Origin: Tubiluchus corallicola
Taxonomy: Eukaryota; Animalia; Priapulida
Direction: 5' to 3'
Length of the DNA stretch: 64,000 nucleotides
Assembly (NCBI GenBank): GCA_030141605.1
Contig: JAQGDQ010000774.1
Span: 33,952-97,951, forward strand
This document shows, one piece after another, positions 16,481 through 60,528 of the stretch; position 1 is the stretch's first letter; every line of letters begins with the position of its first letter. The position numbers and the translations under genes were made by a program. The notes under the pieces are model-generated. The model was not told where the DNA came from. It worked only from the letters and a program-made list of their open reading frames with translations, and searched no databases.

Positions 16481-16564
16481 CTTGTAATTTCCAACTTTAG
16501 TAAAAATTTGCTGTGCGTTTACGCCAGACTGAAGTGTTGTTTGTGATTTGGAACCTCCATCAGC
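16481..16564 (-). CDS. NPR1-like: NPR-like receptor constant exon 8 (Ser/Thr-rich region before the kinase-homology domain)
   Basis: Not in the ORF track. gttgcAG|GCT GAT ... TAC AAG|GTTCGT; 84 nt, phase 0 to 0; ADGGSKSQTTLQSGVNAQQIFTKVGNYK, matching the Q.F......YK(G) motif that opens the kinase-homology domain. Confidence 0.85.
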
Positions 16565-16639
16565 CTGCAACTGAGCAAATCATAATTACCATAATTTACT
16601 TGAAATGATAATTTAATTCTTTGAAATCGTCTCACAATA

Positions 16640-17170
16640 CAAGTAAATATTTTGCCACCTCTTTAAGAAACTCCATGAAAATCCCGATATTAGAAGCCCA
16701 CAGAGATTATCAAACTCTCCTGTTTCTCTATAAATATATCAACAATATTAATTCTCCTTTCAAGAACAATAAGGTTCCACTTCTTAAAAACCCCAGTATG
16801 AATAACAGAACACTAAATTTATAGTGGATAAATCAATATGGAAAGAATTCCATTACTAAGCAAGCAATACAACTTTGGAATTCATCACCGACATCACTAA
16901 AACACAGCAGCTCTTTATTAATATTCAAGTTTAAATTTAAAAAAAAACATTTAATGACTCGTCTTGAATATCCGACATACGAACACGATGATATTCACTT
17001 ACTAAACTAGTTTATATTTTATTTTTGAATTTCTAGTTGCACTTATAGTTTAGCTTGCACTAGACGCATTTGCCCAGAACAGTGTACGTTTTTTATATGA
17101 ACTAACATTGATTGTCTGTCTTTTAATATGATGCTCAATGTTTTTAAAGTGGCAAATGAAGATTTTTTCT
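16640..17170 (+). mobile_element. 5'-truncated copy related to the same LINE, in the intron between exons 7 and 8
   Basis: ATSLRNSMKIPILEAHRDYQTLLFLYKYINNINSPFKNN matches ORF2 TTNLRKTLKFQIIEAHKEYFTLLFIFKYINNISKPFQNN; 3' motif TGCACTAGACGCATTTGCC. Confidence 0.85.
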
Positions 17171-17817
17171 ACTTTTACCACTGCTGTTAGCTGAAACACA
17201 TTCAGCTAGAACGTGTCAATAAAAAGTCAAATTTTGAAACTATGGGACTAGATTTTGCTACATTGTAGCCGTTATAGTTAGTGATGGTGACACGTGTTTT
17301 AATTAGGACTGTGTTTGCGATCCAAATACAATGTACAACAATATAGCAGTAACAAATTAGTACAGATCAATACTGTCAACAGACTAAGTGATAACGAGTT
17401 CTACACACAATACACAAAAGTCATGAAAAGTTCATCGAACACCACAAGTTGTTCTATTGGTTAGTCGAGAGCTTGCTTATTTCTTGCTAACATGATAAAA
17501 TTTTATGATTTCATTTATGTGTGTGTGTGTGTGTGTGTGTGTGTGTGTGTGTGTGTGTGTGTGTGTGTGTGTGTGTGTGTGTGTGTGTGTGTGTGTGTGT
17601 GTGTGTGTGTGTGTGTGTGTGTGTGTGTGTGTGTAAATATATTGCCTATATGTGTACTGTGCGCATTTATAGTGTTCATATGTTCATATATATGCATACA
17701 CATAGTGCATATTGTATATATGCATAATATATACACTAATCAAACATTATATATATATATATATATATATATTGATTATTACTACATATACATAGATACA
17801 CAGTAATTGTATTTTAC

Positions 17818-17932
17818 CCTGAATGATGACTTCGACAACAATGAGCTAGCATTGGCCTTTTTCGATATGACGACATCACTCCATTGTACTTTCCACCACA
17901 TGTTAGCCAAATCGGCCTCAAGTTTTATTTTC
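17818..17932 (-). CDS. NPR1-like: NPR-like receptor constant exon 7 (cytoplasmic juxtamembrane)
   Basis: Not in the ORF track. tctttcAG|G AAA ATA ... TTC AGG|GTAAAA; 115 nt, phase 2 to 0; RKIKLEADLANMWWKVQWSDVVISKKANASSLLSKSSFR (RK..LE.EL....W.V.W.D motif of NPR-A/B). Confidence 0.9.
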
Positions 17933-18933
17933 CTGAAAGAAATTGTAAAGATTACAGTAAGGTAAACGTAAAGTCAAGTTTTCCTACAAGAAAGACATTC
18001 TTGTACTAATTTGACGTTTTTAGACAAAATTACGCTTTACAATTGCTGTCTCCTTGTAAGTATCAGTTCACGTCACAGAACACGTGACAGAACACTGCAG
18101 CTACATTATTTTAAATATGGAGTAGTTCGTGTTAAGAGACGGCAGTTCAAGCTCATAAAGCAAACTTTGACTGAATGGATGCATCGACGAATAAGCAAAA
18201 CGAACGAATGAACGAACGACCTAACGAACGAACTAGCTAACTAACTGCCTGATTGATTGACTGACTGACTGACTGACTGACTGACTGACTGATGAACAAA
18301 CGAACGAGCGAACAAGTGAATTAACGAGCGAACAAATGAACGATTGAATAGACGAGCAAACGAACGAACGAACGAGCGAACAAATGAACGAACGAACGAA
18401 TAAATGACAAACATTTGGGTGACAAAACGAGTTACAAACGAGGGAGTTGCACATCAAAAGTTCAAGCAACTTGTTCTTCTGTACATCCACTGGTAACTTA
18501 CAAACAAAAAAAAGATAGACAAAAAGGTTTAAGAAAAAAGTAAAAGAAGACAATAGAGGGAAGCAGGGAGAGAAGAGGAAAAATTAAGTGAACCAGAAAA
18601 AGAAGGTGGGCCGAAATACACAACAAACGCTCAAACAAACGAACGAACAAACAAACACACAAACACATAAATACGCAAACAAACAAACACATAAACACAT
18701 AAACAAATAAACAAACAAACCAACATACATAGATACAAACAAACAAACAAACAAACAAACAAACAAACAAACAAACAAACAAACAAACAAACAAACAAAC
18801 AAACAAACAAACAAACAAAACAAATAAACGAACGAACGAACGAACGAACGAACATACACACAAACAAACATATAAACTACGTAACAAAGAAAACCTGCAA
18901 ACACAGATTAAAACGAGTAAAATGTTTTCAAAC

Positions 18934-19018
18934 CTGTATATAAACAGACCGATGAACAAGACCAGAATCACTAGAGCTGCCAATGCTATCAGAACCACCT
19001 CATACGATTTTAAAGGCT
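18934..19018 (-). CDS. NPR1-like: NPR-like receptor constant exon 6 (transmembrane helix)
   Basis: ttttatttacAG|AG CCT ... TAC AG|GTTTGA; 85 nt, phase 1 to 2; EPLKSYEVVLIALAALVILVLFIGLFIYR. Confidence 0.9.
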
Positions 19019-58099: not shown

Positions 58100-58789
58100 A
58101 CATTGTTGACACAAATTGTGCATGTTGCTATAATTGAAGTTCTGTAAAAATTTCATGCATAAAAATATCAAAAAAGCATTACATTTTTATTTTAGTCAAA
58201 CCCAATAGTAAAAAACAGTGTATAATAGAAAGGATATATATATATATATATAACACGTAGGTAGAAAACATACAAATACTAGCCCTGCTTTTTGATTGCC
58301 CGTAACACATTTACCTTCGTGTATAAGTGAACAGTGTTTGAGGCTTTTCCTGTGCAGTATTTCGTATTTGTATTCCGTTCATTGTAGGCCCTTTCACTAG
58401 ATATTGTACATGAAACTATTGTAAATGTGTAATGTGAAATAAATGACTTATGACTTTGTGACAAGTCGACTGAACTATTGCAACTCTCTTCTTCTTAGAT
58501 CATCAGATTGTCATTTACTGAAACTGCAATCGGTTTAAAATGCTGCTGCGCGGTTGATCTCTCAGACAAAAAAATCACAGACCACCACTTTTAGCTCAGA
58601 TACCCTGGTTGCTTATGTACTTTCGAATAGAATGTAAACTCTTATTGCTTGTATAGAAGTTCATTGAATGTGCCGAGGGTTGGTTGTGCCAGTTATGATG
58701 GTCGGTAATTTGATATTACAGCCATGCATCTTTGAAACCAGCTGCCCCTTTATGCCAAAACGTCTCCATCTCTTCCTTGTTTTAAATCT

Positions 58790-59220
58790 CAAATCTCTAT
58801 CACCAAACAAGGAGTTCAACTTTGGAATACCCTGCCATCAAATTTAAAACAAATCGAGTCTTTCGACGAATTCAAATCAAAATTAAAAATACGTCCATTA
58901 AATCGTTTTGAAAACCCAACATACGTAAACGATAAAATATATTCATCCACAAATTTTATTCACCCACGTGCATTTTAAATTATATGTATTTATTGTATAT
59001 AGTCTATTATAATTTCCGTGTAATATTATAATGTATATTTTGTTTTAAATTTTTGGCACAGTAGTTTTTAGTTTGCACTGGACGCATTTGCCTTTAACAG
59101 TTGTGTGAATTTTATTCTCGTGCTACGATGTTCTTTTATGCTTTTATAGCTATGAATATCGATTTTTTATAGCAAATAAAGATTATATATATATATATAT
59201 ATATATATATTTATATATAA
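58790..59220 (+). mobile_element. 5'-truncated copy related to the 60763-64000 LINE
   Basis: Translates SITKQGVQLWNTLPSNLKQIESFDEFKSKLK...FIHPRAF, homologous to the ORF2 C-terminus; shares the TGCACTGGACGCATTTGCC motif, AATAAAGATTA and a (TA)n tail. Confidence 0.85.
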
Positions 59221-59313
59221 ACACTTTTTTCAATCCTGGTACAGATTATGCAAAACAAGGCATCATTGATAAATCTTTAGAGCTGATGTCAACATAGCGC
59301 AATCTATTATGTT

Positions 59314-59612
59314 TCTTCCTACCATTTCCACTAACACATCCTTCTATCCTTCCTGTGTGATCGAACCTTTCTCCCAGTTCTTTTTTTTGTTCACTCATCC
59401 ATTCTTTCTTTATCGGGTTCACATGACAGTGGGCTTATACAAGCCTTTGCTTCTCTAGCCCACTGCAGTACAATTATTCTTTTATGATAACCATAGTGTA
59501 TGAAACATAACAATTTAATATAGTAGATGTAATAATTTTGGTGCCACTGTGTGATTAATGTCGTTATATTGTACTAAATGTGATAATAATAATAAATAAA
59601 TAAATAAAAAAA
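59314..59612 (+). mobile_element. Retroposon 3' end, copy 2
   Basis: cagtgggcttatacaagcctttgcttctctagcccactg hairpin followed by an (AAT)/(AAAT)/polyA tail. Confidence 0.75.
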
Positions 59613-59858
59613 ATCCCGTGCGTTTAGTAACTCGAAAACGTTAAATTTTAATTGTTTCTATAAATTTTGGTCATTTTTAGTTCTGAGATCTTCCTGTATT
59701 TTTAACTCTGTAAAGCCGATCTGGGAAGCCATGTTAATGAATTATTATTATTATTAAATTCTGGAATGACAAAGATCGTGGTAAAGTCGTAACTGTTGTT
59801 TTCATTTAACCAAAGACGTAAACATTAACGTTTGTACAAAAAACGTTTTTCGCCTTAC

Positions 59859-60528
59859 CTCTAGAAACCAAAGACGCCTTTCGCAACAGCTCAGCTTTCA
59901 TTAATTGATTTTTTCCAAAAAAGGGCAGCATCGTTACGTATGCTTGCCGCATCTCCGCCCACACGTTAACAGTTTTGCTGATAATCTTATGAAAATTTCC
60001 ATCGATCATATCGTAAATGACACTCAACGTACGCCATTGGTAGTACTCACAGACCTTGCCGAAATAAAGCATGAAAGTGTTCATGTTAAAAGATACTCTA
60101 GTGAGAGTGAAATAGACGTTCTTCTGGCCCAGACGAGTGCTCGATCCAGCTGGTGTAATAAGAGGCAAGTTCCAGTCTGCAGCCATTAAACCAATCTGTT
60201 CCAACATTGGACTGCAGCCGGGTCCTAGAAACATGTGTACGCTTTCCGTGGCACAGATTTCGGCAGTTATGGAGGCCACGTGTTGAGCCGTGCATAACAT
60301 GTGCGATCGAGAATCCACGAACACGTGCTTTATAGTAGCGAGATTGGCAAGATATCGACTGGCCTTTTCTACGCCTATGTCTATTCCGGAACCTGTGCGT
60401 TGTAGTGAGAATGGCATAATCGAACCTTGCACCATTATACTGATTATAGTTATGTTTTTGTTAGGCAAAACTTCGCTTCGAACATAAGCAAACGTAAAAG
60501 CAAGCAGCAGCGTGCTTCTGACATCCAT
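59859..60528 (-). CDS. NPR1-like: NPR-like receptor, variable first coding exon V3 (signal peptide + N-terminal ANF-receptor ligand-binding region)
   Basis: ATG at 60528; signal peptide MDVRSTLLLAFTFAYVRS; family motifs GIDIGVEK, FLGPGCS, ADWNLPLITPAG, FTLTRV. Ends GTT TCT AGA G|GTAAGG. 670 nt = 223 codons + 1 (phase 1), in frame with the exon starting at 29218. Confidence 0.9.

Follow-up and report, generated by a model that had tools for sequence, protein, structure and literature searches.

Organization of the receptor locus

The subject of this analysis is a 64-kb stretch of DNA (referred to as the window), namely positions 33,952 to 97,951 of contig JAQGDQ010000774.1 from Tubiluchus corallicola, which contains no N and carries on its minus strand a gene for a receptor of the natriuretic peptide receptor (NPR) type. 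One set of downstream exons (the body, exons 2–9) is preceded there by three paralogous exons, V1–V3, each of which might serve as the first coding exon. A preliminary description of the window had proposed that all three are spliced onto the same body, and the coordinates, the integrity, and the individual ATG and signal-like start that it gave for V1–V3 were all confirmed. The exons are listed below in the order of transcription; exon 9 is an addition to the earlier list.

59859..60528, minus strand: V3, 670 nt, 223 codons; signal-like start and N-terminal half of the ANF-receptor domain; phase-1 donor GTAAGG
51150..51846, minus strand: V2, 697 nt, 232 codons; phase-1 donor GTAAGT; AG directly 5' of the ATG
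34386..35040, minus strand: V1, 655 nt, 218 codons; nearest to the body; phase-1 donor GTACAG
29058..29218, minus strand: exon 2, the first constant exon, with the only compatible acceptor (29218, AG/TA)
26927..27061, minus strand: exon 3, ectodomain
24157..24384, minus strand: exon 4, ectodomain; the ANF_receptor profile ends here
19140..19284, minus strand: exon 5, juxtamembrane
18934..19018, minus strand: exon 6, predicted transmembrane helix (hydrophobic, judged from sequence)
17818..17932, minus strand: exon 7, intracellular juxtamembrane
16481..16570, minus strand: exon 8, with two in-frame acceptors (16570 and 16564)
12691..12765, minus strand: exon 9, where the kinase-homology domain starts; GT donor in phase 0; match to the exon 8–9 profile (14.5 bits, E 7e-6)

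Each V exon is free of stop codons from its ATG, contains a hydrophobic, signal-like stretch within the first 20 residues, and ends with Ser-Arg and one G followed by a GT donor in phase 1. All three matched the Pfam ANF_receptor domain (V1, E 1.8e-15; V2, E 5.1e-15; V3, E 5.6e-11), and a wider V profile run over the window detected these exons and no more. The identical end point (Ser-Arg-G/GT, phase 1) given in the preliminary description was indeed observed, but the final Arg proved invariant in 16/16 aligned sequences, and the common end represents the ancestral intron of the family rather than any special feature of this locus. Being inherited, it is not by itself evidence that the three exons share a body.

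The single acceptor at 29218 joins all three V exons in frame, and V1, V2, and V3 together with exons 2–8 give 536, 550, and 541 codons, as previously counted, with the acceptor at 16564, or 538, 552, and 543 codons with that at 16570. All six combinations of V exon and exon 8 acceptor are open through exon 9. The two exon 8 acceptors are 6 nt apart, so that Leu-Gln would be either in or out of the product. Profiles of exons 2, 3, 4, 5, 6–7, and 8–9, built from 16–28 homologues with the window's own sequence excluded, each found their exon once in the six frames of the window, and elsewhere in it nothing exceeded 0.2 bits, apart from a separate exon 6 piece. The absence of exon 2–like sequence between the V exons was likewise borne out within the window: 523 of the 524 open frames that start after an AG between 29300 and 59850 scored 35 or less against exon 2, and the remaining one (score 168) was the frame of exon 2 itself, entered from an AG further upstream. 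Exon 2 is thus present in one copy within the 64 kb. Two weak matches were rejected as chance, an exon 2–like one at 57418–57350, which contains stops and has no acceptor, and a kinase-homology-like one at 4634–4560 (E 0.34), which has no splice sites.

The predicted protein has an ANF_receptor ectodomain with the NPR fold, a single transmembrane helix, and the start of a kinase-homology domain. The best matches of its profile among solved structures were NPR-C (E 5e-40) and NPR-A (E 1e-29), and the closest named full-length relative among the best 150 of 1344 homologous proteins (see below) was a Lottia gigantea cyclase with kinase-homology and cyclase domains. By themselves, this relative and the tree described below would point to a lophotrochozoan as the probable source of the DNA. 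An Atlas search returned ANF_receptor clusters only, word-index protein searches were almost empty (1, 2, and 1 matches), and an Rfam scan gave 0 matches.

Divergence of V1–V3

The V exons are old paralogs, with amino acid identities of 39% (V1–V2), 35% (V1–V3), and 42% (V2–V3). Their synonymous sites are saturated (proportion of synonymous differences, pS, 0.77–0.86), while the nonsynonymous distance (dN) is 0.47–0.67. Neutral evolution was simulated with point mutations only, indels being ignored. At 0.2 changes per site, the open reading frame, ATG, and donor of a V exon stayed intact in 0.4–1.2% of 5000 runs; at 0.4, they did so in 0/5000. Since the synonymous sites are saturated and the exons are intact beyond this neutral expectation, each of V1–V3 was under selection as coding sequence until recently, and neutral evolution of V2 and V3, which the preliminary description had named as part of an outcome that would refute its proposal, was not borne out. 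The part most divergent among V1–V3 (19–27% identity) corresponds approximately to NPR-A residues 155–195 and is also variable across the whole family (13%). For this reason, and because synonymous divergence (dS) is saturated, we do not claim positive selection on ligand contacts.

The part of the receptor encoded by a V exon

The structure of V2 was modeled with AlphaFold2 from a 60-sequence alignment (mean predicted local distance difference test score, pLDDT, 89.5). The model overlaid residues 1–208 of the NPR-A ectodomain (8tg9_A) with Z 18.2, a root-mean-square deviation of 3.0, and 198 aligned residues, while the next structure matches, class C G-protein-coupled receptors (GPCRs) among them, reached Z 15.5 and below. 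In NPR-A, the peptide sits between two monomers, and the residues named in peptide binding or dimer bridging, from Asp62 to His195, all lie within 62–195 (bioRxiv 10.1101/2020.07.09.196394, section 7). The earlier statement that such residues belong to the N-terminal portion of the ectodomain, that is, to the V part, consequently holds, and because the named contacts fall inside the V-equivalent region 1–208, an exchange of V exons would exchange the equivalent of the binding cleft while exons 2–9 stayed fixed. It is plausible that receptors carrying V1, V2, or V3 would bind different ligands. Natriuretic peptides are regarded as vertebrate-only, and the present receptor therefore probably binds something else; for most non-vertebrate members of the family, no ligand is known (PMC6878697). 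Heterodimeric receptor guanylyl cyclases are known from Caenorhabditis elegans (PMC5225109); receptors with different V parts may form mixed dimers.

A contig that joins an exon 2–like sequence to another V-type end

A small run of assembled contigs under the same species label (X1), which we presume to derive from RNA, was compared with the exon 2 region of the window (28910–30340). A search of sequencing runs with V1 yielded none from RNA that contained it, only X1 by virtue of its species label (0.00 of the V1 words present), and was uninformative as to expression. Twenty-nine records fitted the region, one of them on exon 2; the others displayed were short intronic matches, mostly less than 90% alike. 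The exon 2 contig is 307 nt long and matches 29084–29218 at 125/135 nt (92.6%, 10 differences); the four differences listed are all at third positions, three silent and one changing Glu to Asp. The match stops exactly at the 29218 acceptor and is followed by 172 nt unlike the intron, the 30 displayed letters of which encode, in frame, a nine-residue V-type end with Ser-Arg and one phase-1 base. Of its 9 residues, this end has 6 in common with V1, 4 with V2, and 6 with V3; of its 30 nt, 13 agree with V1, 11 with V2, and 15 with V3, in the range of the V exons compared with one another (14–20 of 30). Six of nine residues were reached by 7 of 200,000 random 30-mers from the window, and an allele or orthologue of V1–V3 at 85% identity would score as low as the contig's end with P at most 7e-6.

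Judged by these letters, the contig is an exon 2–like sequence joined to a fourth V-type first exon, as old as V1–V3 and distinct from each of them. Its simplest reading is likely a V4 located upstream of V3, which would imply splicing past V1–V3. The head probably does not come from a whole-gene duplicate, since a duplicate should carry a V1-like head, and the distance of this one from V1 matches that of V2 and V3.

Related arrangements in other animals

The V profile retrieved 1344 representative proteins at E up to 0.001, and the best 150 of them were examined. One was dropped (P0082, at first a multi-V candidate with a body, in fact a GPCR-like protein with two whole domains); 107 had one V unit and no body, 34 a V unit with a body, and eight had two or three V units without a body. 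Three further candidates (P0141, P0052, and P0040) showed several matched stretches but one V unit each. V-only models prove nothing by themselves, because fragmented assemblies also yield them. The eight multi-V models, none of which contains exon 2–like sequence, come from Polypterus senegalus, Bulinus truncatus (KAH9502223.1), Batillaria attramentaria (KAG5708737.1), Lingula anatina (XP_013400522.1), and Branchiostoma lanceolatum (CAH1254748.1), from Hypsibius exemplaris (partial units), from one further entry, and from P0071; units within a model are 34–98% identical, those of Hypsibius excluded. The cluster mate of P0071, Limulus XP_022238773.1, reads V-V followed by one body with kinase-homology and cyclase domains.

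The P. senegalus protein (P0011, KAG2462139.1) is annotated as ANPRA; it is built from two NPR exon-1 units that are 68% identical to one another, and it lacks any exon 2 sequence. It possibly represents a variable-first-exon natriuretic peptide receptor in bichir.

At the DNA level, the same layout was found in a metagenome contig from another animal (L002), where two first exons, A (1376–1796) and B (3398–3836), each with an ATG and a phase-1 donor and 56% identical to one another, lie upstream of one exon 1b (5855–6067) and one exon 2 (11414–11560), both joins being open. The variable unit is shorter there because of an extra intron in that lineage. Two other contigs (L001 and L003), with one V each and 2.0–2.4 kb in length, were too short to test the layout.

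In a tree of 39 rows, rooted at the midpoint, with Hypsibius and one further multi-V model left out and no clade test applied, V1–V3 clustered together (92/85). The tandem units of Polypterus, Branchiostoma, Limulus, Bulinus, and Batillaria grouped by species (98/94 or better), and those of Lingula did not. From these groupings, we infer that V arrays would have originated independently and repeatedly.

Other features of the window

Both ends of V1 are locally duplicated, which makes it the V exon with signs of trouble; it may be decaying or translationally damped in this individual. These duplications and the remaining features are as follows:

34975..35346, minus strand: V1 start repeated in tandem (74 bp, five copies); each of the four units upstream forms a 24-codon upstream open reading frame, out of frame with V1
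34266..34396, minus strand: two 64-bp copies spanning the V1 donor; use of the second donor would include an in-frame stop
7191–7434, minus strand: terminal exon with a C-type lectin domain (Pfam Lectin_C, E 2.7e-13)
45879–48479, minus strand: broken element resembling a long interspersed nuclear element (LINE), between V2 and V1; its 47871–48479 frame matches Exo_endo_phos (E 3.8e-9)
52451–54788 (106-bp unit), 14044–15105 (51), 27447–28701 (40), 25766–26532 (42), 7471–8588 (31), and 40696–41595 (21): large intronic minisatellite arrays

The upstream half of the lectin exon was not found by motif search. The exon may belong to a gene nested in a long intron, or it may be a sign that the receptor gene ends early; direct joining of exon 9 to it was rejected as out of frame (phase 0 versus phase 1).

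Discussion

These observations led us to consider it probable that the window holds a single gene for an NPR-type receptor, which is likely a membrane guanylyl cyclase, and that promoter choice selects among its variable first exons for splicing to the one exon 2, much as in the UGT1 and protocadherin clusters. The layout proposed in the preliminary description is well supported, namely by the intact and selected V exons, a body that is single-copy in the window, the fourth V-type end in the X1 contig, and the recurrence in L002 and Limulus; the common exon end is no evidence in its own right. The array would have formed by repeated duplication, together with its promoter, of an ancestral exon 1 that happens to encode the signal peptide and the equivalent of NPR-A residues 1–208. 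Each V exon would be transcribed from its own promoter, and its donor, being closest to the cap, would be spliced to the only exon 2, past any V exons lying downstream, which would be skipped because they have no proven acceptor. With a fourth V exon likely further upstream of V3, the outcome would be a set of receptors that differ in their ligand-binding half and share one membrane and signaling body.

Several observations weigh against this interpretation. Among the X1 contigs compared with the exon 2 region, there was no record of V1, V2, or V3 joined to exon 2, and what the run contributes is one contig from one small run, with an exon 2 that is 7% different and 30 of 172 loose letters displayed; it is possible that this contig comes from a paralogous locus or a related species. 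Four upstream open reading frames encoding nothing but a signal peptide precede V1, and a k-mer comparison of the DNA upstream of the V exons revealed no convincing shared motif. The putative ligand-contact stretch has no apparent sign of special selection. No later kinase-homology or cyclase exon was found in 1–12690, and the lectin exon lies on the same strand 5 kb past exon 9. Because 1–12690 contains neither the remainder of the kinase-homology domain nor a cyclase domain, the label "guanylyl cyclase" rests on relatives, and the cyclase domain would have to be placed beyond position 1. The multi-V models are gene predictions known at the protein level only, and no pair of isoforms with the same body and different heads was present among 53 proteins longer than 300 aa, in a set whose clustering at 50% would hide such pairs.

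The explanation that survives best beside a shared body, though we regard it as unlikely, is that V2 and V3 are heads of separate receptor genes, the bodies of which lie outside the window (interleaved genes), were collapsed in the assembly, or have just been lost, so that only V1 uses this body. It would agree with the lack of a V2 or V3 junction among the X1 contigs compared with exon 2, with the 10/135 differences of the exon 2 in X1, which may mark a paralogue, and with the fact that the copy number of exon 2 is known for the 64-kb window only. However, there is no trace of exons 2–9 between V exons that are themselves intact, and a collapse would be expected only if nearly identical bodies had stood under heads that are saturated at their synonymous sites. 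Furthermore, a whole-gene paralogue should have a V1-like head, whereas the head in X1 is as distant from V1 as V2 and V3 are, and the same layout occurs in L002 and in the Limulus model.

It is quite unlikely that the same products arise without separate promoters, by mutually exclusive splicing of the V exons from a shared upstream non-coding exon, in the manner of Dscam1. An AG does stand directly 5' of the V2 ATG, and the 75 nt before V2, before V3, and before the V1 array contain AGs preceded by 13–17 pyrimidines in 22 positions, comparable with 11–17 of 22 at the true acceptors of the gene. Yet comparable clusters use promoters (PMC1885805; PMC4835542), and AGs of this sort, which were compared without a control, are expected in DNA of 64% A+T. 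Moreover, every V exon has its own ATG and signal-like peptide, and splicing from V to V would need to be suppressed.

That V2 and V3 are kept as secreted single-exon binding proteins or decoys, made by intron read-through and intronic polyadenylation, is highly improbable: each V exon does read through its donor to a stop within 2–19 codons, and 107 of the best 150 homologues (of 1344) are V-only models, but such models also arise from fragmented assemblies and long first introns, all three exons keep a GT donor in the right phase, AATAAA is absent from the 800 nt after V2 (about 1 expected) and first appears 743 nt after V3, and a V exon spans only residues 1–208 of an ectodomain of about 430, so that V alone would presumably lack parts of both lobes of the receptor fold.

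The probable arrangement of variable first exons on one body resembles several known systems. As here, the UGT1A, GCNT2, and UGT2A clusters have large first exons, arranged in tandem, alike in length, and identical in phase, upstream of shared constant exons; each first exon encodes a signal sequence together with the half of the protein that determines specificity, and birth and death are lineage-specific. Those genes, however, encode enzymes, are described as vertebrate-specific, and have demonstrated promoters and splicing, whereas the present case is known from sequence (PMC1885805). The alpha and gamma clusters of protocadherins and the chelicerate sDscam genes likewise encode proteins of the cell surface, in which variable 5' exons or cassettes are combined with an intracellular part that stays constant (PMC4835542; PMC8373072). 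Their variable part is an adhesion ectodomain (a whole one in protocadherins), whereas here it is the first half of one ligand-binding domain that must fold together with constant exons 2–5, and only three to four variants are seen. With NPR-A, NPR-B, NPR-C, and the invertebrate NPR-like cyclases, the protein shares the ANF_receptor ectodomain, the single transmembrane helix, the start of the kinase-homology domain, and the position of the first intron. Mammalian NPR genes are not known to have more than one coding first exon. That of human NPRB measures 667 bp from the ATG (PMC12394403), from which it follows by arithmetic that its first intron is in phase 1.

In the main text of a survey of human tandem exons (PMC8373072), NPR1, NPR2, and GUCY do not appear. 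The known expansions of invertebrate cyclases are of whole genes (PMC1435932), and the words "exon" and "splic" do not occur in that source; C. elegans has 27 receptor guanylyl cyclases (PMC5225109). A full-text literature search, seen as titles and starts of abstracts and with few subscription journals covered, returned no description of variable first exons in genes for NPRs or receptor guanylyl cyclases. Such isoforms may already be present in database annotations. The device as such is known.

A broader proposal, which we put forward tentatively as one that may well prove too wide, is that protocadherin-like arrays, in which several ligand-binding first exons precede one body, arose repeatedly and independently among NPR-type receptor guanylyl cyclases, in this animal, horseshoe crab, snails, a brachiopod, amphioxus, and bichir, and that gene predictors hid them as orphan proteins of 230 aa and as V-V fusions. 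Each cell would then acquire its ligand specificity through promoter choice, and mixed dimers, whose cleft is two-sided, would multiply this specificity.

Only a few adhesion molecules and detoxifying enzymes are known to be encoded in a variable/constant layout. In the present gene, the exchanged exon would be the half of a hormone-receptor ectodomain that holds, in NPR-A, the named peptide contacts and the dimer-bridging residues, and one gene could supply a small repertoire of receptors feeding a single cyclic guanosine monophosphate (cGMP) output. If the layout is as widespread as the fused models suggest, then (i) receptor counts are wrong in many animal genomes, (ii) many entries named "partial ANP receptor" are in fact variable exons, and (iii) these genes offer a natural head-swap series with which the ligands of orphan invertebrate cyclases could be sought. 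If true, the bichir case would bring the layout into the vertebrate natriuretic system.

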